A DNA stretch of 32,000 nucleotides from NCBI RefSeq assembly GCF_000145295.1, contig NC_014408.1, forward strand, positions 1,380,001 to 1,412,000, written 5' to 3'. Source of the DNA: Methanothermobacter marburgensis str. Marburg (GTDB lineage Archaea; Methanobacteriota; Methanobacteria; Methanobacteriales; Methanothermobacteraceae). A program made the position numbers and the translations under genes. Numbering within the stretch: the first letter of the stretch is position 1; every line of letters starts with the position of its first letter. The notes under the pieces were generated by a model. It saw only the letters and a program-made list of their open reading frames with translations, did no database searches and was not told the DNA's origin. Positions 4,736 to 31,746 of the stretch are shown here, piece after piece.

Positions 4736-5218
4736 TTATTTTACCAGTTCCTCGCCCCTGTCAATCACAATCCTGCATGGAACAGGGAACTTCATTGCAG
4801 CCCTTCTCAGGGCCTCCTTGGCATCCTTGAAGTTCTTCTTGTTTGTCTCGATTGTGATTATCTTCTGGTTCTTCTTAACAAGGGCCACTGTGCTTACTGG
4901 TTTCCCGAATGCCTTCCTCATACCGTCCTGGACACGGTCAGCCCCTGCCCCTGTCGCCATGGGGTTTTCACGGACTATGTGGTGGGGGTAGACCCTTATC
5001 TTAAGGTGGTAACCCATCCTACCGGCCTTCCTCTGCATGTAACGGTTTGAGGCTATCCTGGCTGCCTCCAGGGCATTGTGGGTTATCTGGGTTGGTGCCT
5101 TAACAGCAACGCTCAGTGAAATCGGGAATTCAGCTGAGAGGTTACCCATATCATATTGAACTATCTTTGAACCTGGAATCTTCTTGATGTACTCTCTTCT
5201 TGTGTATGCACGAACCAT
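4736..5218 (-). CDS. rpl10e: 50S ribosomal protein L10e (uL16)
   Basis: 160 aa from ATG 5218 ([26 protein letters not shown]...), with an AGGAGGA SD about 7 nt upstream. The rest of the 464-aa ORF-track entry is antisense to the cooC-like gene and is not coding. Confidence 0.9.
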
Positions 5219-5387
5219 AAATAATCCTCCTGTAATCATGTCCATGAGAATAACTATGAAATGAGTATCTCGGTAACCATTAATAAATATTGTCTTGGAA
5301 GCCAAACAGTTAATAAATCCAACCTGAAAAATATAAGGATACATATAATTAGCAGGGATGGTTTTTAAAAGTTTCCATGGTGTCATC

Positions 5388-6170: not shown

Positions 6171-6207
6171 GTTAATGGGTGGTAACGTCACAGGACGGAG
6201 GCCTGAA

Positions 6208-6450
6208 ATGAGGATATCAGTAACCATAGAAGCGGAATACGAATCAGAGAAGGAAGCCGAAATAGTTATGAAGGCACTTGAACCCGAAAACAGATCATAC
6301 GTTGAATCTGAAATTGACGGATCAACAGTAAGGTTCACCATGGAATCAGATTCCATTGGAACAGCCCTGAACACCGCAGATGACCTCATATTCTCTGAGA
6401 TGATAGTCGAAAATATGATGGGCTTTAAATCCGAGAATTCAGAGAAGTAA
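6208..6450 (+). CDS. Small conserved protein, possibly KEOPS Pcc1-like fold
   Basis: 80 aa from ATG 6208, with GGAGG 7 nt upstream; the ORF-track start at 6175 has no SD. The pattern MRISVTIEAEYESEKEAEIVMKALEPE...VRFTMESDSIGTALNTADDLI resembles archaeal Pcc1/CTAG-family proteins. This is a by-eye match only. Confidence 0.4.
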   Translation: MRISVTIEAEYESEKEAEIVMKALEPENRSYVESEIDGSTVRFTMESDSIGTALNTADDLIFSEMIVENMMGFKSENSEK

Positions 6451-6490
6451 AGAATTCAGATTTAATCAAGCTTAAGCATGTGGTGATTGG

Positions 6491-8403: not shown

Positions 8404-9713
8404 ACCCTCCTGGGGTATCTGGGCTCCCTGAACTCTATCATGAATGATGTGCCCCCGGCCGACTCAAAGGTGAGTGTACCGTCAAGCTGCCTCACAAGGC
8501 CCCCAACAAGATCCAGACCAAGACCCGCGTTTTCCTTAAGGCTGAAGCCCTCTGGAAGGCCCCTCCCATTATCACTGACCCTGAGAAGGAAGGCATTACC
8601 GGTATCCTCGAGGGATACCCTGATGGTTCCGCCATCATCGAATGCATGCCTCAGGCTGTTTGATACAAGTTCATTTAGAATGAGTCCCAGCGGGACTGCC
8701 GTTTCAATGTCGAATTTCACATCAACAATGTCCACCTCAATCTGGACACCGGAACTGTGCATGTCGCGCAGGTAGGATAGGAGCCTTTCTGTGTAGGATG
8801 CAAAGTCTACTGTGCTGGCCTCTGGATTGGAGAGAAGGAGCTCATGGACCAGGGCCATCGCCCTTATCCGAAGCTGCAGAGCCCTCATGAGTTCACAGAA
8901 ATCCTGATCCATTCCCCGTGCCTGGAGGTTTATGAGGCTTGAGATGATCTGAAGGTTATTCTTGACACGGTGGTGGAGTTCTGATAGGAGTGTCCTGTTG
9001 GCCTCGAGGGACCTTCTTGCTGTCTCCTCTGACCTCTTTATATCGGTGATATCCTCAAAGATTCCCAGGAAATACCCATCAATCCTTCTTATGAGTACCC
9101 GTATCCATCCACCCCCCTGCCTTATCATGAACTCCTGACTTTTTCTGAAAGCTGCAAGGTCCTTGTGGAGTTCACCTATAAATCTGTTGTCTGCCGGTTG
9201 CCTGAAAATCTCCAGGATGGTGGGATTCGACTCCAGTATCTTCCCATCGGCATCCATGAGGACCACCCCAACCGGGAGTTCCATGAACAGTGACCTGAAC
9301 TTCCTTTCACTGATCCTCAGTGACTTCTCCTTATCACTCAGTGATCGCAGGTAGAGGCGCAGAACCGCAAAAAGAAAAAGTGATGTCAGTAGTATGAAGA
9401 GGGATCCCTTGATGATTGAGAGCTGGACAAGCAGAGGGGGCTTTGCTATGAGATAGAGGATGTGGTCTGATGAGAGTATCCATAGAAGGCTGAAGATTGC
9501 ATAATAGAGTGCTATCCTGAGCGCATCTCTCTCGGGATCCATATATACTGTTATCTTCAGGGGTCCTAATAATTTTTGGGAAAAGGTGAGTTCTGATACC
9601 GGAACATCAGTGAAATGGGGTAGAAGAAGCAATCCAGTCGGGAATAGAAGAAGCAACCCAGTCAAATCCAGAATCCCAGGTGCCCTGAAAGGATAGTTAA
9701 GGGAAACAACCAT
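8400..9713 (-). CDS. Membrane-bound PAS sensor histidine kinase (HisKA_2-type H-box)
   Basis: Contains the H-box ELHHRVKNNLQIISSLINLQ and the HATPase N/G boxes (LNELVSNSLRHAF, DNGRGLP, GLGLDL). A PAS-like segment (FRSLFMELPVGVVLMDADGKILESN) follows the hydrophobic helices. The start is uncertain: ATG 9713 gives 437 aa and ATG 9542 (MDPERDALRIALYY...) gives 380 aa. Neither has a clear SD. Confidence 0.8.
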   Translation of the reverse strand: MVVSLNYPFRAPGILDLTGLLLLFPTGLLLLPHFTDVPVSELTFSQKLLGPLKITVYMDPERDALRIALYYAIFSLLWILSSDHILYLIAKPPLLVQLSIIKGSLFILLTSLFLFAVLRLYLRSLSDKEKSLRISERKFRSLFMELPVGVVLMDADGKILESNPTILEIFRQPADNRFIGELHKDLAAFRKSQEFMIRQGGGWIRVLIRRIDGYFLGIFEDITDIKRSEETARRSLEANRTLLSELHHRVKNNLQIISSLINLQARGMDQDFCELMRALQLRIRAMALVHELLLSNPEASTVDFASYTERLLSYLRDMHSSGVQIEVDIVDVKFDIETAVPLGLILNELVSNSLRHAFDDGGTIRVSLEDTGNAFLLRVSDNGRGLPEGFSLKENAGLGLDLVGGLVRQLDGTLTFESAGGTSFMIEFREPRYPRRV

Positions 9714-9730
9714 GGTGGATTCTGAGGAGG

Positions 9731-10462
9731 TTATTCCTCTGAATCCTCCGCAGTCTCTTCCTCCCTCTTCTCAAATACATCAGAAAATTCAACCTTACTG
9801 ACACCCTCAATGTTCTCCCAGATGTCCTTAGCTATCCTGAACCTTGTGAGGGTAACATCCATGTAGGGCCTGTTATCAAATCGGGTCATCTCATCCATGC
9901 AGATCCTCACACGTCCATCATCTATTTCAACCTCTGTCTTGTCGATGTCCATGTTCTGGGAGGGGTAGTGGAGCTGGATCATGCTCTTTACCTTTTCAAC
10001 ATCATCTTTGATTATCTCCTTAACCTTCAGATCGTATTCGAGGGTTTTGCCTGCAAGTTCATGGTTGAAGTCCACCCTCACGCGTCCACCTGAGACGTTA
10101 AGGACCCTGCCCTCATGTCCCTCAACGGTCAGTGGCATCCCCGGGTAGGGCTTTATTCCCTGCCTCTTGAATTCGCCCATGGGTATGAGCTGGACAAGTT
10201 TAGGGTCCCTGTTACCGAATGCGTCCTCCGGTTCAATCTCAACGTGTTTTTCCTCGCCTTCCTCCATTCCAATAACGGCCTCGTCAAGACCCTTTATGAG
10301 GTGTCCACCTCCAACAACGACTGGTATGGGGCCAAAGGTCTTCTTTATCTGAAGTCCGGCCTCCTTAGCCACTTCCTCGTCTGTTGTGTCAAAGACCTCA
10401 CCGGTCTCCTTGACCTTGCCTGTGAATTCAATTTTTATAAAGTCTCCTTTATTCACTGCCAT
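9731..10462 (-). CDS. Long-type archaeal FKBP peptidyl-prolyl cis-trans isomerase/chaperone (~28 kDa)
   Basis: 243 aa. It has an FKBP core with an insert-in-flap ([21 protein letters not shown]...[20 protein letters not shown]...[18 protein letters not shown]), a C-terminal domain and an acidic tail. Confidence 0.85.
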
Positions 10463-11550
10463 ATCTCTAGCCTCCTGTGTGGTATTCTATCCTTAAATTC
10501 TTCAAGGATCTCTTTATCCTTAAATGCAAGAATTCGAATTACAGATGGATAATTTTCTATATATTTATGGACCAGTCCCTTATGAACCTTTGCCTCAAGA
10601 ACCGAGATTATGCGCTGCCTGTGGTGTCTGCTGAATGATGGGGGTATGGCCTCCTCGACCTCAGCAAGTGAACGGTATGGTCTTTTCCTTACGATTGCAG
10701 ATGCTGTTAAATCATCCAAGAGGTTGAGAACCTTAAGTTCATCAATTTCAAGGCTGTTTGCGTTTCTGAGTATCCCTGTCGAGAGCCTCAGATCATGCAG
10801 GGGTGCCCTTCCCTCCGAGATTTCCCTTTCAAGGACCTCAACCGTCTCAGGGGGAAGCATATGTGTGACTTCACCAATTTCGCCCCTGGATACTGCATCC
10901 CGTATTCTGGTTCCGCTCACACCCTCAAGTCTCCTTATGAACATGAACCTGTTTCTGAAGTTGAATCCAATCCTCCCGAGGGCCCCCGCAAGGGATGCTA
11001 TGACATAGTTGTCCTCCTCAAGTTTACCCTCAAGTACGGTCTCAGAGGTGTCAAGGTCCACTATCCTGTAGGGCCTTGGCACAACCCTGTGGCCCCTTCT
11101 GATCCTTTCAAGGACCTCATCAAATCCATCAACCGGCCTGTAGCCGCGGGGTATCCAGTCAGTATCGAGGGCCCTGAACATCCTCGCAAGGCAGAGGGAG
11201 TACTGACCTGAACCCATAACACCCATTGGGGGGCCCTCCACCACTATATCAGCCCCCGCCCTGATGGCTATCTCTGCCCTTGCCTGGCGGGTCATTATGT
11301 AGGGTACGCCCCTTCCACTCCTCTCAAGGGGCCCCGGTATGATAGCCACAAAGAGGGCGTCTGGTCTGAGCTTCCTGGCCTCCATCATGCAGTGCCTGTG
11401 GCCCCTGTGAAAGGGGGAGTACTCTGTGAAGTCTGCCATGATGCCGGGTTCAGATGCATGGTCACCGTATTCCGGTTTATTAATAGCATCCGCCCTGATG
11501 AGTTCAAGGTCCCTCTCAATTACACTCCCTAGAAATTTCTCTGAAGGCAT
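10453..11550 (-). CDS. HxGH-motif nucleotidyltransferase resembling bacterial TmcAL (UPF0348 family)
   Basis: 365 aa. [10 protein letters not shown] corresponds to EYNPFHNGH of B. subtilis TmcAL as I recall it. The next ~90 aa are collinear ([11 protein letters not shown]... versus NGADLVIELPY...), and an ISxTxIR-like VSGTRIRDA is present. It overlaps the FKBP gene by 10 nt. Confidence 0.6.
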
Positions 11551-11597
11551 GTTAATTAATATAAAGCCGGGGGTAAATAATTTAAGTGGATGATAGC

Positions 11598-18033: not shown

Positions 18034-19272
18034 TTATTTCAGTGACAGTGCACCCTTCGGACAGGCGGGTATGCACTGGTCACAGAGTATACAGAACCCT
18101 TTGAGTGGAACCTTCTCATCGGTGAGTTTCAGCATGTCGTATGGACAGGCCTCTATACAGTCACCGCACTGGTCACAGAGGGCAGGATTGTACTGGACCC
18201 TCTTCCTCTTGACAACCTCACCATCAATGACCTTGTCCATATCCACAAGGCTGAGGGCTCCCTTTGGACAGGCCATGGTACATGCACCGCAGCGTGTACA
18301 CATGGCAAATGATGGCTCCTCATCCACCTTCTCATTGTCAGGGAGCTTCATGCCCTCCCTGGTTACAACCCTTATTGCATCGTTGGGGCATATGTTGGCG
18401 CATGCACCGATGAAGTCACATTTTCCTTCATCCCAGACAAGGCCCTCTTCACTTGCAGGTTTGGCGGGTCCGAGTTCCACATCAAGGTCTATGGCATCCA
18501 CTGGACAGAGCTGTTCACATAATCCGCAGGCTGTACAGATGGCTGGAAGTTCAACTGTAAGGTTTGATGACTTTGGAACTATGAAGTCACCGGGGCATGC
18601 CTCAACACAGGTGTTGCAGCCTATACATGCCTCCTCATCCAGTTCGAATTTCCTGATTTCCTTGGCCCTCTTCTCTGGTTTTTTGCCTGAGATGTAGACA
18701 GCGTTCCAGGGACAGGTCTGTGCACAGACACCACACTTTATGCAGGTGTCCTCATCGATCTCTATGACTCCACCCACCTTTTCAAGGGTTATGGCATCCA
18801 CAGGGCATTCGGGGACACACATTCCACAGCCAACACAGTCAGCAATGAATATGGGCCCCTCGATTTCCAGTTCAACCTTTGCTGGTTCCTTTATGCCCTC
18901 AACGCCTATGACACCCACAGGGCAGATGTCAACGCACTTCTGGCACATGACACAGAATCCCTGAAGCGGAATCTTTTTGACCTTACCCTCGTCAAGTTTG
19001 AGGATCTGTGGAGGGCAGACCTCCACGCAGTCCCCGCACTCATTGCACTTGTCAGGGTTGAAAACTATCCTGCCCTGTGTGTTACCAGCCTCGTCAACCA
19101 CCAGATCCTCAATTTTGAGGGCGCCTGTTGGGCAGGCATCGACACACTTGGGTTCCCCGCCGCAGATGTCACAGTAGATAACATCCTCCGGTGTTACCTC
19201 AATGGCTGCGGTAGGGCAGGTCCCCTGGCAGGCACCACACCTTATGCAGTCCTCTTTGTTGACAACTATCAT
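18034..19272 (-). CDS. mvhB: Polyferredoxin (12 x [4Fe-4S] motifs)
   Basis: 412 aa. I count 12 ferredoxin-type cluster motifs: ten canonical CxxCxxCxxxCP plus two variants ([15 protein letters not shown] and [12 protein letters not shown]). It is the last gene of mvhDGAB, with an AAGGTGGT SD. Confidence 0.95.
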
Positions 19273-19296
19273 TTTACCACCTTTACCCGGGTGAAA

Positions 19297-20715
<1,419 letters not shown>

Positions 20716-21642
20716 CTATTTACCCTCCTTCTTTATTTTCATTGGTATGAGTGCTGCTGGAAGTGTGAATGTGTAGAATGTTCCAACAATGTCATCCAGC
20801 TGTTCAGCCACTTCCTCAGGGTCGACGGTTTTGTCCTCTTCGACCTTGTAGTCAGAGGCTATGGCACTTATCATTTTGGCACCCTGGTCCTCGACACGTG
20901 CTGTTGGACCATAGCAGCCACGGCATGGTATGGCTATGCTTGGGCACTCTGCACCGCAGATTGATACAGTTGCTGGGCCCATGCAGATGAGTCCCTGTGG
21001 TATGAGACAGAGGTCATCCTCTGGTTTACCAACCTCGAACTGCCTCTTTATGAAGTCCATTGCAAGGCCTTCTGGTGGTTTTTCCCTTGGGCAGACTTCA
21101 CAGAGGTTTGTGCTTGGCAGTTCTATTTCTTCACCTTTGAGGAGTGCCATAACGACCTCAGCAGCAACATCTGACCTTGGTGGGCATCCTGGAACTTCAA
21201 AGTCAACGTCTATGACTTCACCCAGTGGTTTGACCCTTCCCTCAAGGTGTGGTACGTCTTCAGATGGTATGACGCCCTCTTCGTTTGGTGTTGTTATGGA
21301 GTTGATGTAGGCTTCCTCTATGACCTCATCCTTGTCCCAGAGGTTCCTGAGACCTGGTATGCCGCCGTATACAGCACATGTACCGTAACTTATGACAAAT
21401 TTGGCCTTTTCCCTTAGTTCCTCTGCGAATTCCCTGTTTTCATCGTTTACGATTCCTCCCTCAATGACCACAACATCGAGTTCAGGGATTTCATCGTATT
21501 TTGTGTCCATTAAAACAGGGCTGAACTCGAAGTCAGCGTGTTCCATGACATCAAGGAGCTTTTCATGGAAGTCTGCAATGGACAGGTGACAGCCGGAGCA
21601 TCCTCCAAGCCACATTGTTCCGATCTTTATTTTTTCAGCCAT
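20716..21642 (-). CDS. mvhG: F420-non-reducing [NiFe] hydrogenase, small subunit
   Basis: 308 aa with the proximal-cluster motif GGCSGCHLS and no Tat signal, consistent with a cytoplasmic enzyme. Its stop abuts the mvhA ATG with no gap. Confidence 0.95.
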   Translation of the reverse strand: MAEKIKIGTMWLGGCSGCHLSIADFHEKLLDVMEHADFEFSPVLMDTKYDEIPELDVVVIEGGIVNDENREFAEELREKAKFVISYGTCAVYGGIPGLRNLWDKDEVIEEAYINSITTPNEEGVIPSEDVPHLEGRVKPLGEVIDVDFEVPGCPPRSDVAAEVVMALLKGEEIELPSTNLCEVCPREKPPEGLAMDFIKRQFEVGKPEDDLCLIPQGLICMGPATVSICGAECPSIAIPCRGCYGPTARVEDQGAKMISAIASDYKVEEDKTVDPEEVAEQLDDIVGTFYTFTLPAALIPMKIKKEGK

Positions 21643-21654
21643 TTAACATCCTCC

Positions 21655-22080
21655 TTATGCTTCAGCTAGCTGTTTTTTGATTGGTGATGGACCAAGGGCC
21701 CTTATCCTGTCAACCATCATCTTGACGGTTTCGGCGAATTTTTCACCTTCTGATGCGGATATCCAGTCGTGGTGGATCCTTTCCCTGCCAATTCCAAGTT
21801 CATCTGCCAGTTTGTAGATCAGTCTCATTCTCCTGTCGAGCTTGTAGTTTCCTGCGTCGTAGTGGCAGTCACCGTGGTGGCATCCTGTTACGAGAACACC
21901 GTCAGCGCCTTCCCTGAATGCCTTGAAAACAAACTGTGGCTCTATCCTTCCTGAGCACATCACACGGATAACCCTAATGTTTGTAGGGTACTGCATCCTT
22001 GCTGTTCCCGCAGTGTCCGCTCCACCGTAGGAACACCAGTTACAACAGAACATCACAATTTTTATGTCATCTTCAGCCAT
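21655..22080 (-). CDS. mvhD: Mvh hydrogenase delta subunit ([2Fe-2S], HdrA-docking)
   Basis: 141 aa with [15 protein letters not shown]...MCSGR...GCHHGDCHY, the MvhD family signature. An AAGGAGGA SD lies upstream. Confidence 0.95.
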
Positions 22081-22248: not shown

Positions 22249-23766
22249 TCATACAAGGGTCACAGCGTCTCTGAATTTCCCAGAAATTTTTGCAGCGATC
22301 TCCGGGATGGTTGTGGACACTATGGCTGAATCAGAATCCCTGTATGCATCCGCGTCACTGGAACCGCCGCATCGGACCTCGGTTTTAATTTCTGATCTGA
22401 GGTTGTCCACGCTAACCCATTCAACCCACGGGTCGCTGTCCACAAGTACGAATTCATCCACCATTCCATCAAGTTTCTTTGCAATCACCCATGATACGAA
22501 TCTTGCGCCGAAGATTGCCACTGTTCCATGTATGTCGCCGTTTCTGGTCATCTCAGCAAGCGTATCCACGTCCCTCTCTATATTCACCCTTTCATAGAGT
22601 GGAGTTGAGGGGAGGCATGCCCAGTGGGCGTCACCCACATATGTATGCCCGATGGTTTCTGGATAAACATTCTCTCTTCCTGAAGCCTTCACTGCAGCTG
22701 CAAGGGCCTCAAGCTGGGGCTTCTGTACTGGAACAGGTGTTAGAGCAGCCTCAACCTCCTCCCTCATTATCTTCATGACCCTTGGGAGGCCAAACTTACC
22801 CCTTCTTGCTGTGCCTGGACTGTAACCACACATGTAACCATGGTGGTTCTTTGGGAATCCTGTTATTATGGCGTTCAGCCCTGCCCTTAGTCCTATGCGG
22901 CACTCGTCCTCATATGCACCGTTGGTTGCAACAATTCTGCCTGGTGTGAGGATCCTTGCTGCAGCAACGGCCCCTGCAAAGGCGTCAAGTCTATCAGATG
23001 CAAGGTTGAAGGGGCCGCCCTCCAGTACGAAGACATCGACACCCATATCAAGTCCTGCCTCAAAGCCAGATATGAGGTCATCGTATCCGTCTCCAACGAA
23101 CATTATGGCCTCAACACCCTTACCATGCTTTCTAGCAAGTTCAAAAACCTCGCGTGCCTCATCAAGGGGTGCTGCATGGGTTTCAGCCCCCTGAACCGGT
23201 GTCAGGTTAACCGCCACAGAGGAGGCGAGTTCAACCCATTCGTCCCTGTCAGGCAGGCCCTCCCTTTCCTTTTCAAGGAGTCTTGAATGTATTCTTTCGC
23301 GGGGACAACCCTCAAATGGGGGTCCCTCAAGGTAACACTGTCCTCCGCATCCGGTTATTGATCTGGGGAACCTCATGGGACCGTATCTTCCAAAGTGGTC
23401 AAGGTCCAGGGGGACCTCTGTGGTCTCCCGCACCTCCCTCATGAGCTCCACAGGCCTCATACCGTAGTTCTCGGCTATATCTGCGAATGCATAGGCACAT
23501 ACGTGTATTGTTGCACCTATCGTGTCTGAAAGGATGCAGTTTCCAATAAGGTCCATCCTCTCAAGGTCAGATGCGCAGGTGCCCACGATGATCTCTGTGA
23601 GGTCACAGCCCAGGGGGAACCTCTTGAAGGTGGCCCCCAGCTTAATCTTATCCTCCCTTGAAAGGTCAGAAATTGCATCCACCACCTCGGTGACATCCCT
23701 GTCCATTTTCATGATTTCCCATGCAGCTTCAGGATTATCCACTGCTTCCCTGATGATATCGTGCAT
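22249..23766 (-). CDS. flpA: Conserved Cys-rich protein of unknown function, last gene of the flp cluster
   Basis: 505-aa intact ORF with an AAGGTGA SD 6 nt upstream. It has a CX3CX9C motif (ITGCGGQCYLEGPPFEGCP) and a C-terminal beta-alpha-beta, Rossmann-like segment (GTVAIFGARFVSWVIAKKLDGMVDEFVLVDSD). I recognise no characterised family. The flp letter is assigned from my memory of the published order flpECBDA. Confidence 0.75.
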   Translation of the reverse strand: MHDIIREAVDNPEAAWEIMKMDRDVTEVVDAISDLSREDKIKLGATFKRFPLGCDLTEIIVGTCASDLERMDLIGNCILSDTIGATIHVCAYAFADIAENYGMRPVELMREVRETTEVPLDLDHFGRYGPMRFPRSITGCGGQCYLEGPPFEGCPRERIHSRLLEKEREGLPDRDEWVELASSVAVNLTPVQGAETHAAPLDEAREVFELARKHGKGVEAIMFVGDGYDDLISGFEAGLDMGVDVFVLEGGPFNLASDRLDAFAGAVAAARILTPGRIVATNGAYEDECRIGLRAGLNAIITGFPKNHHGYMCGYSPGTARRGKFGLPRVMKIMREEVEAALTPVPVQKPQLEALAAAVKASGRENVYPETIGHTYVGDAHWACLPSTPLYERVNIERDVDTLAEMTRNGDIHGTVAIFGARFVSWVIAKKLDGMVDEFVLVDSDPWVEWVSVDNLRSEIKTEVRCGGSSDADAYRDSDSAIVSTTIPEIAAKISGKFRDAVTLV

Positions 23767-23810
23767 ATTGTTTCACCTTTTAGGTCACTGTGATTCACTC
23801 TGATACTGGA

Positions 23811-23824
23811 TGTTATAAATTTTG
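23811..23824 (-). promoter_or_regulatory. Candidate internal TATA box (minus strand AAAATTTATAACA) for flpA
   Basis: It lies ~50 nt upstream of the flpA ATG, directly after the hairpin and T-run. The predicted start near 23790 would leave a ~24-nt leader containing the SD. Confidence 0.4.
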
Positions 23825-23827
23825 ACA

Positions 23828-23872
23828 AAAATTATGGGTTAATAAGAAAATGCTGCTTTAACCCATAATTTT
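23828..23872 (-). terminator. 15-bp perfect inverted repeat (AAAATTATGGGTTAA-N15-TTAACCCATAATTTT) followed by a T-run
   Basis: The arms are at 23828-23842 and 23858-23872. The repeat lies 8 nt after the flpD stop on the minus strand and is followed by TTTTTGTC. It is the strongest hairpin I found in the window. Confidence 0.6.
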
Positions 23873-23880
23873 AATACCCG

Positions 23881-24294
23881 TTATTTTCCTGCCCTCTTCA
23901 GTGGCCCAAGGTATTTTACAGTCTCATAGAACTCCTGCATTGTCTTCTGAAATTTTTCACCCTCCGATGCCGATATCCACTCCCACCTGAATCTTTCCTT
24001 ATCTATGCCAAATTCAGGGAGTATGTCCTCAATGAACCGGGCCCTTCGTTTCCATTTGTAGTTACCTGAATCATAGTGGCAGTCCCCTATGTGGCATCCT
24101 CCCACAAAGACGCCGTCTGCACCCTCACTGAAGGCCTTTAGTATCATCGAGGCGTTGACACGGCCTGAACACATCACCCTTATGATACGGACGTTGGGTG
24201 GGTACTGCATCCTCGCTGTTCCCGCGGTGTCTGCTCCGCCATAGGAGCACCAGTTGCAGCAGAATCCAACTATCTTTGGCTCGAAACTCATCAT
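23881..24294 (-). CDS. flpD: MvhD paralogue
   Basis: 137 aa. Manual alignment to the mvhD product in this window gives 81 identical residues of ~125 aligned (~65%). All Cys of FCCNWC...MCSGR...GCHIGDCHY are conserved. Confidence 0.9.
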
Positions 24295-24301
24295 ATCACC
24301 C

Positions 24302-25444
24302 CTAATCCTTCTCCCCGCTGTACATTGGGGGCAGTTCTTGGCTCACCCCTGCTGTGAATCCTGTTCTGTCACGGTATTTTTTCTGTATCCTGTGGTAGAT
24401 TCTTGCAATGGGTATGTCCATTGGGCAGACATCCTCACACTGACCGCAGTTTATACAGCTGAAACCCATGTGCGAGAGCCTCACTCCCTGGAATGTAAGG
24501 GGGTCCGGTGCCTTTTCATCTGATTCCAGGAGGTAGTCCTTTTCAAGTTCACATTCCCTGCAGAAGCATACCGGACAGGCATCCCTGCAGGCAAAGCAGT
24601 TTATGCAGCGCTTCCAGTACTCATCCCATTCATCCAGTGAGGGGTATTCCTCATCAAGGTATTTATCCTGAAACTTCCTGGCCATGCTGATCATTGCATT
24701 TTCAATTTTCTCCCTTATCTTCACCATCTTCTCAGAGGGTTCCCTCGCCTCAATGTATCCGCTGCTGCGGGCACCTTCAATGATCTCCTGACCTCTTTCA
24801 GTGTTAACCTCTATGAAGGTCCATCCGTCATCTGCACCCCAGTTTCCACAGGCTAGGTCAGCGTTGCGTGGGACCATTATTTCGCATCGCTGACAGTTTT
24901 CCCGTCTCCCGAAACCCTCCTCCTCAAGGTAATCGATTGATATCTCCCTGTGACTTCCGTCCCTGAGTTCCACTATGAATTTACCCCTGTCAATCTCCTC
25001 ACTCACAACATCATCAGGGTCTATCTCATAGAAGGTCTCTATCATTTCCCGGGCGGATACAGGGGCAAGGGTTCCGCCGCAGTTCAGCCCGATCTTGTAT
25101 ACCTTATCAGGGTCTATCTGGTGCCTCTTCTCAAGCTCCCTTATTGCCATTGCATCACAGGGTTTTACAGCTACGGCCAGCCTCATATCACTTAGATAGC
25201 GGGATATGAGGTCCCCGAACATGGTGGGTGCGCAGTGCAGGGATCCGCAGGTTGATTCTATACCTGAAGAATCCTCAAGTAGAACGGGGATTCCATCATA
25301 CACGTCATATCCCCTTTCCAGTGTTAGTACAGCGTCCACAACTTCTTTATCCAGCATGTACTTGAATATGGCTGTCACCGCTCCTCCACATTCTCCTTTT
25401 CTCTGAATCTCCTCGTCTGTAGCCCGTGCAAGGAGGTACTTCAT
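24302..25444 (-). CDS. flpB: FdhB/FrhB-family F420-interacting Fe-S flavoprotein with a C-terminal 2x[4Fe-4S] domain
   Basis: 380 aa from ATG 25444, with an AGGTGAT SD and 1 nt after the flpC stop. It shows [26 protein letters not shown] and ADLACGNWG, typical of FrhB/FdhB. The C-terminus has [12 protein letters not shown] and [12 protein letters not shown]. Confidence 0.85.
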
Positions 25445-25445
25445 C

Positions 25446-26474
25446 TCAATCACCTGCCCTGAGTATTCTTTCAAATATTTCCATGTCTGAGAGAACCCCT
25501 TCTGGTGCCTGCAGTGCGGGTTCAAGTTTCATGGTGTATCCCGCTGTGCTGGTGTATGAACCTGATTTTTCACACCATGCTGCCACTGGAAGGAAAATAT
25601 CAGGTGTCAGACCTTCAGTTCTTATGGACTGGAGAACGAATTTTCCTGATACATCCACCGGCTCTGCAGCTGCACCGGGATCTATTAACCAGACAGAATC
25701 AAATTCTCCTTCATTAACGGGAGGTAAATGTTGCATCACCCCCCTCGTGTTGAAGTCTTCAAAGATGGGGAGAACATCAAATTCATTTTCAGATGAGAAC
25801 TCAAGAACGGGTCCTATAATTTCCGGTATTTCAGGTGTTATTATAATCAGAGATCCCCCTGGAAGTTGCTGGAGATCATTCAGTACCTCCCTCTCATCTG
25901 AGAAGGTTATGTGAAACCCTGAATTTACCGCCATTCTTGTTTCATCCCTTCTGTCATAGGATCTCACCTCTGCTCCGGCAGCCATTGCATGGAATATTCT
26001 CCTACCTATGAGTGGGGCGCATGTTATGGCATCTCCTATGACTGCAATGTTATCATAGTCCCTGATATTTCTGATATCAATTTCAGGATAATCAAATTCA
26101 GGGAAAACGGTTATTAAACCTGATTTTTTCACATTAAAGTTTTCTATGATTTCTCTGAGTTTGAGTGCCTCCTCATTGGTGAGGGTTCCTGTTGTCAGGA
26201 TGGATATGTCCTCTGATGAAAGAAGTTCTGTTAATTTATCCAGTGCCTCATCCCAGTTCACTCCACTTAGTTTCCCTGATTTTTTAACTCCAGGGGATGT
26301 TACTCTGTCCATCAAGGGGATTTCATAGCAATCCCTGCCTGCCCTGCATGTCTTTCCCTCATTGACCGGGTGTCTCCTGTAGGGGTAGGTTCCCACAGGT
26401 GCGCCACCCATCTCCACAATATTCACGCCACAGCCTGCACTGCAGGAAGGGCATAAGGTGTGTTTCACCATCAT
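25446..26474 (-). CDS. flpC: Truncated molybdopterin-oxidoreductase-family (FdhA-like) protein
   Basis: 342 aa. It has the N-terminal [4Fe-4S] motif C8-x2-C11-x3-C15...C43 and the MopB-like blocks NWDEALDKL, TGTLTNEE and LPVAAWCEKSGSYT. There is no Sec/Cys-His catalytic block and no C-terminal domain IV. Confidence 0.8.
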   Translation of the reverse strand: MMVKHTLCPSCSAGCGVNIVEMGGAPVGTYPYRRHPVNEGKTCRAGRDCYEIPLMDRVTSPGVKKSGKLSGVNWDEALDKLTELLSSEDISILTTGTLTNEEALKLREIIENFNVKKSGLITVFPEFDYPEIDIRNIRDYDNIAVIGDAITCAPLIGRRIFHAMAAGAEVRSYDRRDETRMAVNSGFHITFSDEREVLNDLQQLPGGSLIIITPEIPEIIGPVLEFSSENEFDVLPIFEDFNTRGVMQHLPPVNEGEFDSVWLIDPGAAAEPVDVSGKFVLQSIRTEGLTPDIFLPVAAWCEKSGSYTSTAGYTMKLEPALQAPEGVLSDMEIFERILRAGD

Positions 26475-26478
26475 TTAT

Positions 26479-26838
26479 CTACACCTCCAGATTTTTCACC
26501 TTACCCTTGAACTCATCAATACTGAGAAGTTCATTCTGGACGCTGATGGTCCTATCACGGGTTATGTTGAACATCTCCACCATGATGTTAAGTCCAAGGT
26601 CAAGCAGAAGTTCAGATAGGTTTCCGGGTAGTTTCTCAGAGTCTTCAAGAACAACCTTCCCCTCCACCTTGAATTTCAGGGGTACTCCTCTTTCTGATTC
26701 CATATAAAATGTGTATCCCACCGAGTTATTTCCAAAATCTGTGTAGTCAATTTTCCAGTCCATATCAAGGCTCAGGGTACACGATTTTGGGTTTTTCTCA
26801 GGGCGAAAAAGTCCAATCCTCTGAATCTGGATTTCCAT
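26479..26838 (-). CDS. flpE: Small protein of unknown function, first gene of the flp cluster
   Basis: 119-aa intact ORF with GGAGGTTGTGGTG upstream of the ATG. It ends 4 nt before the flpC start, and its last codons carry the flpC SD (GGAGGTG). I recognise no family. Confidence 0.65.
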   Translation of the reverse strand: MEIQIQRIGLFRPEKNPKSCTLSLDMDWKIDYTDFGNNSVGYTFYMESERGVPLKFKVEGKVVLEDSEKLPGNLSELLLDLGLNIMVEMFNITRDRTISVQNELLSIDEFKGKVKNLEV

Positions 26839-26895
26839 GCTTTCACCACAACCTCCGGTTTTATGTTTATCATAAGTATGTGCTAATAAGTATTA

Positions 26896-26913
26896 CATAT
26901 ATAAATGTTTCCA
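26896..26913 (-). promoter_or_regulatory. flp promoter BRE/TATA (minus strand GGAAACATTTATATATGT)
   Basis: A near-consensus archaeal TATA (TTTATATA) with an A-rich BRE, ~60 nt upstream of the flpE ATG. Confidence 0.6.
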
Positions 26914-27354
26914 AAATAAAAAAATGATTAAAATGCTTCAAAAAGAATTATATGAAATTTTTGGGTTTATTTTTTGAATTGAGTTCTTCTAAATGTTTAA
27001 AAATGAAAAAATAGTACTTAAGTGACCTGTAAACTCAGGATTAATATTTGGGGTCATGGAAATATGTTCATAATAAATATTTATTTTTTATTATTAATGC
27101 TGTTCCAGAGGGGGATCCAGCAAAATGAGGAAACAGCCCATCACTTTAACCCTGAGGGTGTCTCTCTGATCTTCTAAATGAAATTAAAAACCGGAAGGTG
27201 AGAAATTTTAATATTAATATTTTAATAATTATGAACACCATGTGTCCTGTAGCTGCTGTAAAGCACACAGGAACCCAGCGATGTTCCTGATGGCTACAGT
27301 TGCCCCTCCAGATAAAACAATTCCATTTATAAGCTTTTTGGTTTGAAAATTATC

Positions 27355-27371
27355 AAAAAATATATTTATAC
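27355..27371 (+). promoter_or_regulatory. hmd promoter candidate (AAAAAATATATTTATAC)
   Basis: A TATA-like box ~70 nt upstream of the hmd ATG. A second TATA-like ATTTATAA lies at 27325-27332. Confidence 0.45.
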
Positions 27372-27389
27372 TGGAAACCGATTAATCTG

Positions 27390-27412
27390 TACTACTAATA
27401 ATATGAGTAGTA
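27390..27412 (+). promoter_or_regulatory. 7-bp perfect inverted repeat TACTACT-N9-AGTAGTA at the predicted hmd transcription start/leader
   Basis: Read directly. The arms are at 27390-27396 and 27406-27412. It lies between the TATA candidate and the GGAGTGAT SD. Confidence 0.5.
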
Positions 27413-27434
27413 TTACAGAAATGGAGTGATAGAT

Positions 27435-28469
27435 ATGAAACTTGCAATACTAGGTGCGGGATGTTACAGGACCCACGCGGCCAGTGGAATAACAAACTTT
27501 TCCAGGGCCTGTGAAGTCGCTGAAATGGTTGGAAAACCAGAAATAGCCATGACCCATTCTACAATAACAATGGGTGCTGAGCTGAAGGAACTTGCAGGTG
27601 TCGACGAAGTGGTCGTTGCAGACCCTGTATTCGACAACCAGTTCACAGTCATAGACGACTTCGCCTACGAGGACGTCATAGAGGCCCACAAGGAGGACCC
27701 TGAAAAAATAATGCCACAGATCAGGGAAAAGGTCAACGAAGTCGCCAAGGAGCTTCCAAAACCACCAGAAGGTGCAATACACTTCACACACCCTGAAGAC
27801 CTTGGATTTGAAATAACAACAGACGACAGGGAAGCGGTTGCAGACGCAGACTTCATCATGACCTGGTTCCCAAAGGGTGACATGCAGCCAGACATAATAA
27901 ACAAGTTCATAGACGACATAAAGCCTGGTGCAATAGTCACACACGCCTGCACAATTCCAACCACCAAGTTCTACAAGATCTTTGAACAGAAACACGGCGA
28001 CCTGGTAACCAAACCTGAAACACTCAACGTAACATCCTACCACCCAGGCGCTGTTCCTGAAATGAAGGGACAGGTATACATTGCAGAGGGCTACGCCTCA
28101 GAGGACGCAATAGAAACCCTCTTCGAACTCGGACAGAAGGCCAGGGGTAACGCATACCGGCTACCAGCAGAACTCCTCGGTCCTGTCTGTGACATGTGCT
28201 CAGCACTGACAGCAATAACCTACGCAGGTATACTATCCTACAGGGATTCAGTTACACAGGTACTCGGCGCACCAGCAAGTTTCGCACAGATGATGGCCAA
28301 GGAGTCCCTGGAGCAGATAACAGCTCTCATGGAAAAGGTTGGAATAGACAAGATGGAAGAGAACCTCGACCCCGGTGCACTCCTGGGTACAGCTGACTCC
28401 ATGAACTTCGGAGCATCAGCAGAGATACTTCCAACCGTCTTTGAAATCCTCGAGAAGAGGAAGAAATAA
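27435..28469 (+). CDS. hmd: H2-forming methylenetetrahydromethanopterin dehydrogenase ([Fe]-hydrogenase)
   Basis: 344 aa from ATG 27435, with a GGAGTGAT SD. MKLAILGAGCYRTHAASGITNFSRACEVAEMVGKPEIAMTHSTITMGAEL and the FeGP-ligand cysteine context VTHACTIPT match Hmd. Confidence 0.95.
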   Translation: MKLAILGAGCYRTHAASGITNFSRACEVAEMVGKPEIAMTHSTITMGAELKELAGVDEVVVADPVFDNQFTVIDDFAYEDVIEAHKEDPEKIMPQIREKVNEVAKELPKPPEGAIHFTHPEDLGFEITTDDREAVADADFIMTWFPKGDMQPDIINKFIDDIKPGAIVTHACTIPTTKFYKIFEQKHGDLVTKPETLNVTSYHPGAVPEMKGQVYIAEGYASEDAIETLFELGQKARGNAYRLPAELLGPVCDMCSALTAITYAGILSYRDSVTQVLGAPASFAQMMAKESLEQITALMEKVGIDKMEENLDPGALLGTADSMNFGASAEILPTVFEILEKRKK

Positions 28470-28471
28470 CC

Positions 28472-28505
28472 GGGCCACGGCCCAAAAAATTTATTTATTT
28501 TTTTA
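28472..28505 (+). terminator. Short GC hairpin (GGGCC-AC-GGCCC) followed by TTTATTTATTTTTTT after hmd
   Basis: It starts 3 nt after the hmd TAA. The stem is weak (4-5 bp) and the oligo-T run is the main signal. Confidence 0.45.
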
Positions 28506-28573
28506 ACCAACTGGGTTTATAGAGATCCAACTGACTTTTATGTTCCCAAGCAGCTGAAACTGGTGTTAAATTG

Positions 28574-29602
28574 ATGGATAAAATACTCAAAAAGGCGGCT
28601 GATGGATGTCCCCTCGATGATAACGAGGTTATACAGTTATTCCAGATAAAAGACCCGAAAGATTTTGCCCTTCTAATGGAAACAGCATTCAGCATCATGA
28701 AGGAGCGCAGAGGGGTTATCAAGCTCACATCCACAGTCCACATAACAAATATGTGCCAGGTTAGGCCAAGGTGCGGCTACTGTGGATTTGCCGCCGGAAC
28801 ATCACGTGATGGATACTACAGTTCATTTTTCAAAACCGATGATGAGATCCTTGAAGCCGCCAGGATAATAGAAAAATCTGGAATACCCAGGGTCAGCTGC
28901 TCAGGCGCCCATGGATTCAACGGTGAACACGCTGTTAAGGCAGCGGAAATAGTGAAGGAGAACACCTCACTTGAACTGCTCATAAACGTTGGATCCGACC
29001 TTAACAGGGCATCAGTGGAAAAACTTGCGGATTACAGTACTGACACTGTATGCTGTAACCTTGAAACCGTCAACAGAGGACTTTTCAGGCGTGTGAAACC
29101 CGGGGAGAGGATAGAGGATCGAATAAGAATCTGTGAACTTGTATGTGAAAGCGGAATGGAACTATCAAGTGGTCTCCTTATAGGTCTCGGTGAGAGTTAC
29201 GCTGACCGCCTTGCACACCTGCGATTCCTTGGTGAATTTGAAACGCTTGGAGAGATACCCATCATGGGATTCAACCCCTACCCTGGAACCCCAATGGAGA
29301 ACCATCCTCCCTGCCCCCTGGATGAACAGATGAAGACCATAGCCATCACACGTATCATGTACCCCGATATAAGAATAACGGTTCCAACACCCACCATAGG
29401 TCCCGAAAATGTCCGTTTCTCACTCATGGCCGGGGCAGATAACCTTGCAACGGTTATACCCGACGGTTACCCCTATGATGTCAAGGGTGTAGGGTCCCCA
29501 AGATACGGAAACCTCAACGATGTGCTGAGGGTTGTGAATGAACTGGGACTGAAGCCCCAGATATCAGCAAACCCCGCTGCGGATGGGGTTGCCCTGCTCT
29601 GA
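28574..29602 (+). CDS. hcgA: Radical SAM enzyme for FeGP cofactor biosynthesis (non-canonical CX5CX2C motif)
   Basis: 342 aa from ATG 28574. It has a BioB-like fold with CQVRPRCGYC (CX5CX2C) in place of CX3CX2C, and sits immediately downstream of hmd. Confidence 0.9.
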   Translation: MDKILKKAADGCPLDDNEVIQLFQIKDPKDFALLMETAFSIMKERRGVIKLTSTVHITNMCQVRPRCGYCGFAAGTSRDGYYSSFFKTDDEILEAARIIEKSGIPRVSCSGAHGFNGEHAVKAAEIVKENTSLELLINVGSDLNRASVEKLADYSTDTVCCNLETVNRGLFRRVKPGERIEDRIRICELVCESGMELSSGLLIGLGESYADRLAHLRFLGEFETLGEIPIMGFNPYPGTPMENHPPCPLDEQMKTIAITRIMYPDIRITVPTPTIGPENVRFSLMAGADNLATVIPDGYPYDVKGVGSPRYGNLNDVLRVVNELGLKPQISANPAADGVALL

Positions 29603-29640
29603 TTCATAATACGCGTGTACACCAGATACCCCTGAGTCCC

Positions 29641-29719
29641 ATCAATAAGCAGTGGTGTGATCATCAACCAATGCCCCTGAATGCCCTTAACTCTTATCAA
29701 TAAGCAGTGGTGTGGTCAT
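29641..29719. repeat. 24-bp direct repeat (23/24 identical) duplicating the hcgB ribosome-binding/start region
   Basis: atcaataagcagtggtgtgatcat at 29641-29664 and atcaataagcagtggtgtggtcat at 29696-29719, period 55 bp. A 10-bp imperfect tandem atgcccctga/atgcccttaa lies between them (29671-29690). Confidence 0.95.
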
Positions 29720-30197
29720 GTTAGAGGATATAATAGCCAGCGCATACCTTGAGTCTGCAGAGGACCGTCGCAGAGGAGACCGTGAAGAGGAAGTCAGAGC
29801 AGTGAGGGACTATATAAGCGGCGCTCAAAGGATTGTGGTGCCAAACTGGAACAGGGAAAAGGTTGATGTGATAAACGAGGTCCTAAGATCCTTCAACCTC
29901 AGGGAGGCGGAGCACCTTCAGTTCAACACCAACTGGGCGGACCTCACAAGGATGCCGGCCGTTACAAAGGCCCTCATGGCACTGGACATCTCAGGGGCAG
30001 ATCTTGTTATTGCCCGCGGACGGCTTGGGGTTCCGGGTTCTGGATCGCTCCTTGTGATCATGGACTCCAGGGGGAGGATACTTTCAGCTGCCATGTCACC
30101 CCCCCACGTTATACACGAAATGGGGGTTCAGGAGGCCGTGAGATCAGAGATGACCCATGCCCTTGAACGGATAGGCTTCAAAAGAGGATCAGAATGA
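29718..30197 (+). CDS. hcgB: HcgB (guanylyltransferase of FeGP cofactor biosynthesis)
   Basis: 159 aa from ATG 29718; GTG 29712 is an alternative start. Assigned by position in the hmd-hcg cluster and by size. I cannot verify specific motifs. Confidence 0.65.
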   Translation: MLEDIIASAYLESAEDRRRGDREEEVRAVRDYISGAQRIVVPNWNREKVDVINEVLRSFNLREAEHLQFNTNWADLTRMPAVTKALMALDISGADLVIARGRLGVPGSGSLLVIMDSRGRILSAAMSPPHVIHEMGVQEAVRSEMTHALERIGFKRGSE

Positions 30198-30955
30198 AAC
30201 ACCATGAAACAGGCATAACCGAGACGGTTAAAACATTCTTCTCAACATACAGGGTATACGACATAATCAAGCACATATCGGCAGTTAAATCAGCCGCGGT
30301 TACTGAATGGCTCGCTGAAATCGATATGAAACCTGAAAGTGCCCTTATAATCGGCTCATACTTCACAGGTGCTGCGATTGCAGGTTCACTTGACTGTGAT
30401 GTGACCGTTGCAGATATAAACCCACAGACACGTTTTATCCTTGATGATAACGTGAATTTCCAGGAGGGTCTTATGGACCTCAGGGGTCACTGGGACCTTC
30501 TGGTTGATACAACAGGTCTCGGGGGTGTCACCGAGGATGAGCTGAGGGGCATCAGCGCGGACACATTCATCGTTGAGGACCCAGCATCAGATGGCAGCGA
30601 TGATACTATAAGGAGATTCAACAGAACACGTGAAAGGCTCAGAATGGTTGAATCTGACATTTCAGGGGCCCTGCACACCTATGGCATTGGCTCCAAGACC
30701 TCCGGTACAATGACTCTCACAGTTGATGTCCTGAGGAGGTCGATGGCCGATGCACTTGAATTTGAGGGTGTGCTCTATGCAACAGCAACCCTTGAATTTT
30801 TTGAGAGGATACTCTTTAAGGACAGGGACCCTGAAAGATTCCTGAGAAACCTTGAATCGCCTGCCCTTGTGGTTTCCTCACTTGAAGATCTTGAATGTGA
30901 TGGGATCATAGAGGGGAACCTTGAGATGATAAAATCAAGAATAATCCCTGAATAG
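30194..30955 (+). CDS. hcgC: HcgC (Rossmann-like SAM-dependent methyltransferase of FeGP cofactor biosynthesis)
   Basis: 253 aa. It shares an ATGA start/stop overlap with hcgB and has a Rossmann-like IIGSYFTGAAIAGSL...DVTVADINP. Assigned mainly by context. Confidence 0.6.
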   Translation: MKHHETGITETVKTFFSTYRVYDIIKHISAVKSAAVTEWLAEIDMKPESALIIGSYFTGAAIAGSLDCDVTVADINPQTRFILDDNVNFQEGLMDLRGHWDLLVDTTGLGGVTEDELRGISADTFIVEDPASDGSDDTIRRFNRTRERLRMVESDISGALHTYGIGSKTSGTMTLTVDVLRRSMADALEFEGVLYATATLEFFERILFKDRDPERFLRNLESPALVVSSLEDLECDGIIEGNLEMIKSRIIPE

Positions 30956-31032
30956 CAAATGCTGCCAGCAGTTTGAAGGTGACAGTATGAGAATGGAATC
31001 CGGATCAAAGACCCCAGGCTGCCATTTCATTC

Positions 31033-31746
31033 ATGTCCAAAGGTGATACCATCAGAATAGAATCATTTATAGAGTTCATGGAGAGCCTGGCACCGCCTGA
31101 AATTGCACTTCAAGGTGACAGGATAGGATACCATGGTCCTGAAATTGAGGTTGAATCCGTCCTGGTGCTCATGGACTACCTGGATGATGTGCCTGTGGAT
31201 GGATATGACCTCCTGGTCCTCCACCACCCACCCCAGGTTGAACCTCCGATTCCCTACTATGTCGCACATTCCAACTGGGACGTTGCCGATGGTGGTGCCT
31301 GTGATGCACTTGCAGATGCCCTTGGACTGGACGTTGAATCCTTCCTTGACCCTGAAACCGGACTGGGACGCATATGTCGTGGGGACATTACACTGGAGGA
31401 GCTCATGGAAAGAACATGTGATCTGAGACCAGGGACGGTGAGGGTGGTGAACCCCAGAGAATACCTGGACCGGGTGGCGGTTGTATCAGGTTTCGGTCTC
31501 TCAGACAGGGACCTCATAAAAAGGGCCTTCTCTGAGGGGGCCTACGTTTATCTATCAGGTGACCTCACCCATGCCTCGGCGGTTCTTGCAAGAAACCTCA
31601 ACATGACACTCATTGATGCGGGTCATCATGCAACGGAAATGCCAGGACTCCTGAGACTCTGTGATATGATAGAGGGCCTCGGGCTGGTGGTGGACATTAC
31701 TGATACAGGTACTCCATGGACAGAGTACCGCTATGAAACATTCTAG
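31033..31746 (+). CDS. hcgD: NIF3-family protein HcgD
   Basis: 237 aa. It has the NIF3/YbgI-type metal motifs LLVLHHPP and DAGHHATE, and an N-terminus typical of the family. Confidence 0.75.
   Translation: MSKGDTIRIESFIEFMESLAPPEIALQGDRIGYHGPEIEVESVLVLMDYLDDVPVDGYDLLVLHHPPQVEPPIPYYVAHSNWDVADGGACDALADALGLDVESFLDPETGLGRICRGDITLEELMERTCDLRPGTVRVVNPREYLDRVAVVSGFGLSDRDLIKRAFSEGAYVYLSGDLTHASAVLARNLNMTLIDAGHHATEMPGLLRLCDMIEGLGLVVDITDTGTPWTEYRYETF

Follow-up and report, generated by a model that had tools for sequence, protein, structure and literature searches.

The flp region of Methanothermobacter marburgensis is a cluster of five co-oriented genes on the minus strand, at positions 22249-26838 of the 32-kb stretch of DNA analyzed here (32,000 nucleotides (nt); hereafter, the window). 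We read this cluster as a 4+1 arrangement, with a probability of about 0.93: two linked units that belong to the response to nickel limitation, namely elpXABC, the genes of an electron donor module that connects reduced coenzyme F420 (F420H2) to heterodisulfide reductase (Hdr), and hcgG, a gene for building the iron-guanylylpyridinol (FeGP) cofactor of the [Fe]-hydrogenase Hmd. A preliminary description made from the sequence had instead proposed a single five-gene module; four of these genes, flpE, flpC, flpB and flpD, are elpX, elpA, elpB and elpC, respectively, and the fifth, flpA, is hcgG, a maturase gene whose placement relative to elp differs among genera. The genes, with the lengths of the encoded proteins in amino acids (aa), are:

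26479..26838, minus strand: elpX (flpE, MTBMA_c15240), open reading frame (ORF) of 119 aa; small conserved protein
25446..26474, minus strand: elpA (flpC, MTBMA_c15230), 342 aa; truncated FdhA with one [4Fe-4S] site and without the molybdopterin domain
24302..25444, minus strand: elpB (flpB, MTBMA_c15220), 380 aa; F420H2-oxidizing subunit with flavin adenine dinucleotide (FAD) and [4Fe-4S] clusters
23881..24294, minus strand: elpC (flpD, MTBMA_c15210), 137 aa; MvhD-type [2Fe-2S] connector to HdrA
22249..23766, minus strand: hcgG (flpA, hmdC, MTBMA_c15200), 505 aa; FeGP-cofactor biosynthesis enzyme for Hmd

The ORF list agrees with the preliminary description on the number, strand and extent of the genes and on the gaps between them (4, 1, 7 and 114 nt). 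The longest ORF of flpB opens with a TTG at 25525, and the solved chain begins with MKYLL, that is, at 25444; the deposited ElpC chain begins at the second methionine (24291), which yields a protein of 136 aa and a gap of 10 nt between flpB and flpD.

The ElpABC donor module

Three proteins encoded in this range match chains of PDB 8RVU, the structure of the ElpABC-HdrABC complex from M. marburgensis (Nomura et al., Nature 2025; PMC12350162), with 100% identity from end to end, indicating that the DNA comes from this species or a near-identical strain. In sequence comparison, FlpC shows 100% identity to 8rvu_D over 342 aa, and the full-length FlpB and FlpD sequences show the same identity to 8rvu_E and 8rvu_F, respectively. 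In the structural study, MTBMA_c15240, c15230, c15220 and c15210 are ElpX, ElpA, ElpB and ElpC, which were chosen as proteins that increase as Mvh drops with decreasing nickel; under nickel limitation, Elp replaces the Mvh hydrogenase and the Elp proteins attain an Mvh-like abundance (PMC12350162). The proteins co-purify with HdrABC, and the Elp-Hdr complex displays F420H2-dependent Hdr activity (0.13 and 0.40 U/mg), so that the alternative, F420H2-using input into Hdr via an MvhD paralog that had been proposed from the sequence is shown experimentally for identical proteins (PMC12350162). The path of electrons was derived from cryo-electron microscopy (cryo-EM) of (ElpABC-HdrABC)2 at up to 2.2 Å: the hydride from F420H2 goes onto the FAD of ElpB, and the electrons then pass through ElpB clusters 1, 2 and 4, the two clusters of the HdrA N-terminus and the [2Fe-2S] cluster of ElpC before they reach the bifurcating FAD in the partner HdrA (PMC12350162). 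A 2026 paper treats Elp as established and counts Elp, Mvh and Fdh as three donor modules of Hdr.

The function that the preliminary description had called unresolved was thus published, as Elp, in July 2025. The link between flp and Elp may be easily missed because the Nature paper never uses the word flp (0 occurrences). The mechanism proposed from the sequence is correct and, having already been published, not novel; the main value of the present analysis is that of a check rather than a discovery, in that a sequence-only reading foresaw a function established in 2025. Beyond this check, its value lies in the mapping of the flp names, the 4+1 arrangement, the ElpX family and the candidate operator of a nickel regulon.

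In this mechanism, as published for the identical proteins, the hydride of F420H2 is transferred to the FAD of ElpB and the electrons are delivered to Hdr, where they drive reduction of the heterodisulfide of coenzymes M and B (CoM-S-S-CoB); Elp-fed electrons also reduce ferredoxin or polyferredoxin for CO2 fixation. When nickel is scarce, ElpABC stands in for the [NiFe]-hydrogenase MvhAGD, with Hmd and Mtd regenerating F420H2 from H2, and ElpA, a half-length FdhA with an N-terminal [4Fe-4S] cluster and no molybdopterin, serves as a scaffold, not a catalyst. With Elp, hydrogenotrophic methanogens can dispense with the [NiFe]-hydrogenase Mvh for electron bifurcation at nickel levels such as occur in many natural habitats.

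The domain architectures agree with this assignment and with what had been said of these three proteins. ElpB matches the FrhB_FdhB_N and FrhB_FdhB_C domains (PF04422 and PF04432) and a dicluster domain (Fer4_8/9), which bears out the FrhB/FdhB architecture with a 2x[4Fe-4S] tail. ElpC matches PF02662 (191 bits) and is 63% identical (about 65% in the earlier estimate) to its paralog MvhD, which is encoded 1.8 kb downstream (21655-22080). ElpA, described as a shortened protein of the molybdopterin-oxidoreductase family, indeed contains only Molybdop_Fe4S4 (PF04879) and approximately the last 47 positions of PF00384 (profile positions 305-351), with no match to PF01568; the cysteines of its N-terminal cluster (C8, C11, C15 and C43) are conserved across the family.

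ElpB remains close to true FdhB (511 bits to 9t1s_M), and the 2011 genome paper lists MTBMA_c15220/15230 as FdhAB and makes the case for the need of an anabolic Fdh (PMC3087415). Both points speak for the possibility that FlpCB is a genuine F420-dependent formate dehydrogenase that produces formate from CO2 for purine synthesis and ribonucleotide reductase. However, ElpA, at 342 aa, is about half the size of true FdhA (674-686 aa), aligns only to FdhA residues 7-196 and a short C-terminal piece, and scores 79 bits against the TIGR01591 equivalog, for which the cut-off is 666. Furthermore, no Fdh activity was found in ElpAB-containing fractions or in cell extracts, and ElpA binds no molybdopterin in the cryo-EM structure (PMC12350162), in accord with the proposal that the catalytic subunit has lost the formate-oxidizing site; the genome paper itself notes a second FdhA elsewhere in the genome (PMC3087415). 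The published data on activity and structure refute an Fdh identity of ElpAB, and we give this alternative almost no credence. The 'formate dehydrogenase alpha/beta subunit' labels that elp genes carry in databases are misleading.

Conservation of elp across genomes

To survey elp across methanogens, the ElpA alignment was used as the query against one genome per species, and ElpX was then detected in the flanks with a hidden Markov model (HMM). An ElpA relative is encoded in 127 stretches, of which 79 loci were examined. The elpA-elpB-elpC order with intact ORFs is found in almost all of these 79 loci, which cover the genera Methanothermobacter, Methanobacterium, Methanobrevibacter and Methanocaldococcus. 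The Methanocaldococcus loci contain elpA-elpB without elpC, with MvhD encoded elsewhere, in the mvh cluster, which agrees with a remark on Methanococcales in the structural study (PMC12350162). Throughout, the ElpA homologs are 332-368 aa long. Between genera, ElpA comparisons yield 96-206 bits (26-36% identity) and ElpB comparisons yield 507-679 bits; this far faster divergence of ElpA fits a subunit that no longer takes part in catalysis and is retained as a scaffold.

The loss of half of the ancestral protein in ElpA and its fast evolution could also be expected of a decaying fdh remnant without a selected function, an outcome that the preliminary description had allowed for, along with lack of expression and lack of co-purification. 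Against a remnant stand the uninterrupted ORFs, which keep a constant length in nearly every species-level locus from four genera, the conserved [4Fe-4S] cysteines of ElpA, and the production of the proteins under nickel limitation, at an Mvh-like abundance and in an active complex (PMC12350162). Decay is ruled out by conservation and expression, and this is the least probable of all the alternatives that we considered; the published data likewise rule out a lack of expression and a lack of co-purification. No evidence contradicts the Elp and HcgG assignments.

Several observations on the organization of individual loci can be added. The ORF is split in ElpA of locus L041 (8965-10044) and in ElpB of L051 (10006-11084), representing either rare frameshifted copies or errors in the assembly of metagenome-assembled genomes. 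Many Methanobrevibacter genomes carry two elp clusters, namely elpXABC beside hmd-hcgG and a second elpABC without elpX (pairs L046/L052, L049/L057, L062/L072, L068/L083 and L070/L071); in L065, both clusters are arranged in tandem (5018-7995 and 8995-11575). In Methanobacterium, a distant hmd paralog (about 70 bits to Hmd, possibly of the HmdII/III type) lies between elpC and hcgG:

hmd paralog loci: L012 11824-12849; L014 11743-12789; L016 12141-13181; L018 11751-12779; L019; L080 11654-12766

HcgG and the gap between elpC and hcgG

FlpA, for which the preliminary description reported nothing recognizable, is a full-length HcgG/HmdC: it scores 874 bits, over the full length, against PF10113 and 847.8 bits against the NCBIfam 'HmdC' equivalog TIGR03958 (cut-off 407; residues 1-505 of 505), with no match in a sequence search of the PDB. 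MTBMA_c15200 is listed as hcgG in the 2011 genome paper (PMC3087415). HcgG is one of the two radical S-adenosylmethionine enzymes of FeGP-cofactor synthesis and, in the Methanococcus maripaludis system, works downstream of the guanylylpyridinol stage and has a part in the formation of CO (PMC10100467). The level of HcgG increases under nickel limitation, and the proteins of the Elp-Hdr fractions do not include HcgG (PMC12350162). The induction of HcgG makes biological sense, given that all electrons come from Hmd under nickel scarcity; HcgG works in the service of Hmd and not of Hdr.

The position of hcgG shifts between genera. Of the loci examined, 18 have the gene next to hmd and/or elp. It directly follows elpC in Methanothermobacter only; in Methanobacterium, it comes after the hmd paralog downstream of elpC, in Methanobrevibacter, it is located between hmd and elpX, and many of the examined loci lack it. 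In the window, the 114-nt gap between elpC and hcgG contains two candidate signals:

23828..23872, minus strand: hairpin with 15 perfect base pairs ending in T5, predicted to be terminator-like; 9 nt after the elpC stop codon
23813..23819, minus strand: TTTATAA box, likely a separate hcgG promoter; 47 nt upstream of the hcgG ATG

The fold energy of the hairpin is -14.5 kcal/mol (z = -2.7), with 3 of 200 shuffled sequences folding as well, and a ribosome-binding site, AGGTGA, is located 6 nt before the hcgG ATG. Judging from these signals, hcgG probably has its own promoter, and elpC probably has its own terminator-like signal.

Two points weigh against the separation of hcgG from elp: read-through from elpC into hcgG is possible, and work from the 1990s reportedly described, and named, flpECBDA as one unit. 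Together with the adjacency and common orientation of the five genes and the increase of both Elp and HcgG under nickel limitation, this earlier usage would be compatible with a single functional module of all five genes, including flpA/hcgG, acting on Hdr. Against such a module, HcgG belongs to the equivalog of an FeGP-cofactor maturase (TIGR03958), and complementation data place it in the synthesis of the Hmd cofactor (PMC10100467). We therefore consider a five-gene module highly improbable, if less so than either of the two alternatives discussed above. Given the hairpin, T-run and TATA-like box in the gap, the shifting position of hcgG and its absence from the Elp-Hdr fractions, the region is therefore read as elpXABC plus hcgG.

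The ElpX family

The preliminary description found no match for FlpE, and this stands insofar as sequence and profile searches of Pfam, NCBIfam and the PDB yield none; the protein itself is ElpX, which had already been named and found to be induced under nickel limitation. In the structural study, the induction of ElpX is plotted together with that of ElpABC and no role is stated (PMC12350162); in the literature searched, no other paper was found that mentions the protein in the Elp sense. A word-index search retrieved homologs from Methanothermobacter only, an exhaustive HMMER search found 36 remote homologs, and a profile search found 100, which belong to Methanobrevibacter, Methanothermobacter and Methanocaldococcus. 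Common to the family are an N-terminal motif, I-x-(K/R)-I-x-x-x-R-P-x-x-N-P-K, an invariant D-W, a conserved G and a helix with S-x-x-I-L-D; motifs for DNA or cofactor binding are lacking, as are conserved cysteines. None of the 63 members compared with Pfam has a match, including to PF02556, and no pilus-related domain was detected. Thus, ElpX represents a family that has no Pfam or NCBIfam entry and is not covered by the published work on Elp.

An ElpX ORF lies immediately upstream of elpA for 54 of the 75 elpA genes with enough upstream sequence for the test, in four genera, including all four Methanocaldococcus-type loci; in two Methanobrevibacter contexts, an ElpX homolog directly precedes elpA-elpB-elpC. 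Since the purified complex fractions yielded no detectable ElpX, its link to Elp comes from synteny and co-induction. An AlphaFold2 model of ElpX from 63 sequences (predicted local distance difference test (pLDDT) 72, predicted template modeling score (pTM) 0.65), which replaced an earlier model from 8 close sequences (pLDDT 55), has four antiparallel strands, with a long helix after them. In a Foldseek search of the PDB with this model, the top matches were Escherichia coli SecB (E-value 7e-4, probability 1.0) and the SecB-like chaperone Rv1957. On these grounds, ElpX may be an accessory protein that is conserved but non-stoichiometric, and its most likely role would be that of a chaperone in the assembly of the donor arm, an assignment that we favor tentatively and at somewhat less than even odds.

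Several observations count against such a role. ElpX is not listed in either the 1-megadalton (MDa) or the 0.5-MDa complex fractions (PMC12350162), and 21 of the 75 elpA genes lack elpX; these mostly belong to the second, paralogous elpABC of Methanobrevibacter, in genomes that also hold elpXABC. The SecB-like fold comes from a model of medium confidence (pLDDT 72), with template modeling scores (TM-scores) of 0.41-0.49. Membership of ElpX in the SecB family was rejected: an hhalign comparison with E. coli SecB, the sequence of which was confirmed as PF02556, was not significant (probability 0.13, E-value 0.45).

Given the weakness of the SecB-like assignment, ElpX could also be a regulator or a loosely bound subunit that is lost on purification, for example, an adaptor between Elp-Hdr and MvhB/Fmd in an unstable 1-MDa supercomplex. 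The 1-MDa complex disintegrates on re-chromatography and its Fmd could not be resolved, and ElpX levels are plotted alongside those of ElpABC (PMC12350162). The lack of ElpX in both fractions, the lack of DNA-binding and cofactor motifs and of conserved cysteines, and the second elpABC of Methanobrevibacter, which manages without elpX, all speak against a regulator or adaptor; we rate this alternative as less than likely, though not far behind an assembly chaperone, and a loosely bound adaptor lost on purification would fit about as well.

Some of the homologs carry unrelated annotations: among the Methanobrevibacter ElpX homologs P0060, P0061, P0062, P0067 and P0031, several are labeled 'pilus assembly protein' at NCBI and one is labeled 'ACT domain-containing protein' at JGI. 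The 'pilus assembly' label, which is misleading, may come from confusion of FlpE with Flp pili.

Promoters and a candidate nickel operator

As originally claimed, the region is located between hmd-hcg and mvh-mrt: hmd and hcgA-D (27435-31746) lie on one side, and mvhDGAB (18034-22080) and mrtBDGA on the other. The near-consensus promoter described ahead of flpE is also present, in the 587-nt spacer between hmd and elpX, which contains the following elements:

26898..26905, minus strand: TATA box TTTATATA, elpX promoter; preceded by GGAAAC, which resembles a transcription factor B recognition element (BRE-like); 60 nt upstream of the ATG
26889..26896, minus strand: GTAATACT box, candidate operator; 3 nt after TTTATA
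27388..27417, plus strand: palindrome TGTACTACT-N9-AGTAGTATTACA; between the hmd TATA box (27365-27370) and the hmd ATG (27435)

The single exact copy of TTTATATA in the window, with 0.6 expected, is not significant on its own; because one copy in 32 kb is within chance, the weight of this element comes from its position and its conservation across genera, with TTTATA found at the equivalent position before elpX in Methanobacterium, Methanobrevibacter and Methanocaldococcus. In the window, there are two exact copies of the 9-mer TGTAATACT, both in the hmd-elpX spacer: one copy starts one base past the elpX TATA box, and the other is the right arm of the hmd palindrome. This arm is the reverse complement of the elpX box; the palindrome lies outside the elp operon.

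Related elements recur in the other genera. An inverted repeat, TGTACTAC-N9..12-GTAGTATTAC, is present upstream of hmd in 6 of 7 Methanobacterium-type loci, with L016 degenerate. The elpX promoter has the form TTTATA-N3-GTAATACTAC in Methanobacterium, AGTAATACT-N9-TTTATAT-G-GTTATTACTAC in Methanobrevibacter, with boxes flanking the TATA element on both sides, and GGTAATACT-N9-TTTATAT in Methanocaldococcus; the hcgG promoters of Methanobrevibacter contain AGTAATACT-TTTTATTT. Upstream of elpX, the box is kept in four genera while the flanks diverge (loci L007, L009, L012, L014, L016, L018, L080, L033-L083, L024, L030 and L032), and its spacing is nearly fixed across loci: of 37 boxes downstream of TTTATA, 36 lie at a distance of 3 nt, and of 26 upstream boxes, 25 lie at 9 nt. 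In 1.02 Mb of locus sequence, the 8-mer box occurs 231 times, compared to 77 copies expected from composition, and roughly every second copy falls in the 450 nt upstream of elpX, hmd or hcgG; it is found in 30 of 50 elpX upstream windows, compared to 2.8% of random windows and 16% of AT-rich windows. These box counts and the k-mer P-values are inflated by the many related Methanobrevibacter genomes, which detracts from the case for a shared operator; because the P-values are not independent, we take the fixed spacing and the recurrence across genera as the real evidence.

From this pattern of sites, elpX, hmd and hcgG appear to share a candidate GTAATACT(AC) operator and may be co-regulated by one repressor. 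A repressor site that overlaps the region from the TATA box to the start would be the natural reading because hmd is known to be nickel-regulated and ElpXABC and HcgG increase at nickel limitation. The genome encodes three NikR homologs (MTBMA_c07330, c09830 and c11340), one of which is induced under nickel limitation, and a NikR homolog is possibly the protein that binds the GTAATACT box. Induced genes in the 2025 proteome include mtd, nikR1, cobN1 and that of the Ni transporter. Under this scheme, the operator would flank the TATA box, at 3 nt on its downstream side and/or 9 nt on its upstream side, and release of the repressor at low nickel would turn on the Hmd/Elp program. The combined proposal, in which ElpX is a SecB-like assembly chaperone for the nickel-free donor arm and its gene shares the GTAATACT(AC) operator under one nickel-sensing repressor, appears to us plausible but rather doubtful as a whole. 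The conserved box offers a handle on the sensing of nickel limitation and the co-regulation of hmd, hcgG and elp. No description of the GTAATACT(AC) element was found in the literature searched, and the NikR-site study of Rodionov et al. 2006 lay outside this search. A metagenome scan for TTTATANNNGTAATACT, among the matches listed (at least 120 stretches), returned none with elp or hmd genes, and this pattern, whose 14 specified bases are not enough for that collection, is uninformative on the regulon.

A complete promoter module of the elpX type, AGTAATACT-N9-TTTATAT-G-GTTATTACTA, with no ORF of at least 60 aa downstream, is present in L066 (12265-12300, plus strand) and also in L039 (8155-8215); a small RNA or a very short protein could be expressed from these modules with the same regulation. 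The hmd-elpX spacer of the window is unusually long and AT-rich except for a GC-rich island (27235-27310). The spacer has no Rfam match, and the island contains no ORF longer than 51 aa and folds no more stably than shuffled sequences.

Comparison with known systems

The closest known system is the ElpABC-HdrABC complex itself (PDB 8RVU, 8RVV and 8RVY), in which chains D, E and F are identical to ElpABC of the window. The 2025 Nature paper on Elp assigns no role to ElpX, does not use the flp names and does not treat hcgG as a member of the cluster. The same arrangement of an FdhA-like, FdhB-like and MvhD-like donor arm on HdrA is seen in the FdhAB-MvhD-HdrABC(-Fmd) complex of Methanospirillum hungatei (PDB 7BKB-7BKE), where the positions of the FAD and Fe-S clusters in the B subunit are conserved with respect to Elp. 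The FdhA of M. hungatei, however, is a protein of 686 aa with a molybdenum or tungsten bis-pterin (Mo/W-bis-pterin) that oxidizes formate, whereas ElpA, at 342 aa, has neither this cofactor nor this activity, and the donor of Elp is F420H2 only.

The two remaining proteins of the cluster compare with other families. HcgG/HmdC (TIGR03958, PF10113), to which FlpA belongs as a full-length equivalog, is unrelated to Fdh and Hdr, the flp name being historical. The predicted topology of ElpX, with four antiparallel strands and then a long helix, resembles that of SecB and SecB-like chaperones (PDB 1QYN, 5JTL and 5MTW); unlike SecB, ElpX has no significant profile match to the family and, as an archaeal and cytoplasmic protein, has no link to Sec and no match to PF02556, so that this is resemblance, not membership. 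Finally, in the MvhAGD-HdrABC complex (PDB 5ODC and related entries), the MvhD subunit is 63% identical to ElpC. Mvh oxidizes H2 at a [NiFe] site and needs nickel, whereas Elp is nickel-free and replaces Mvh when nickel is limiting.

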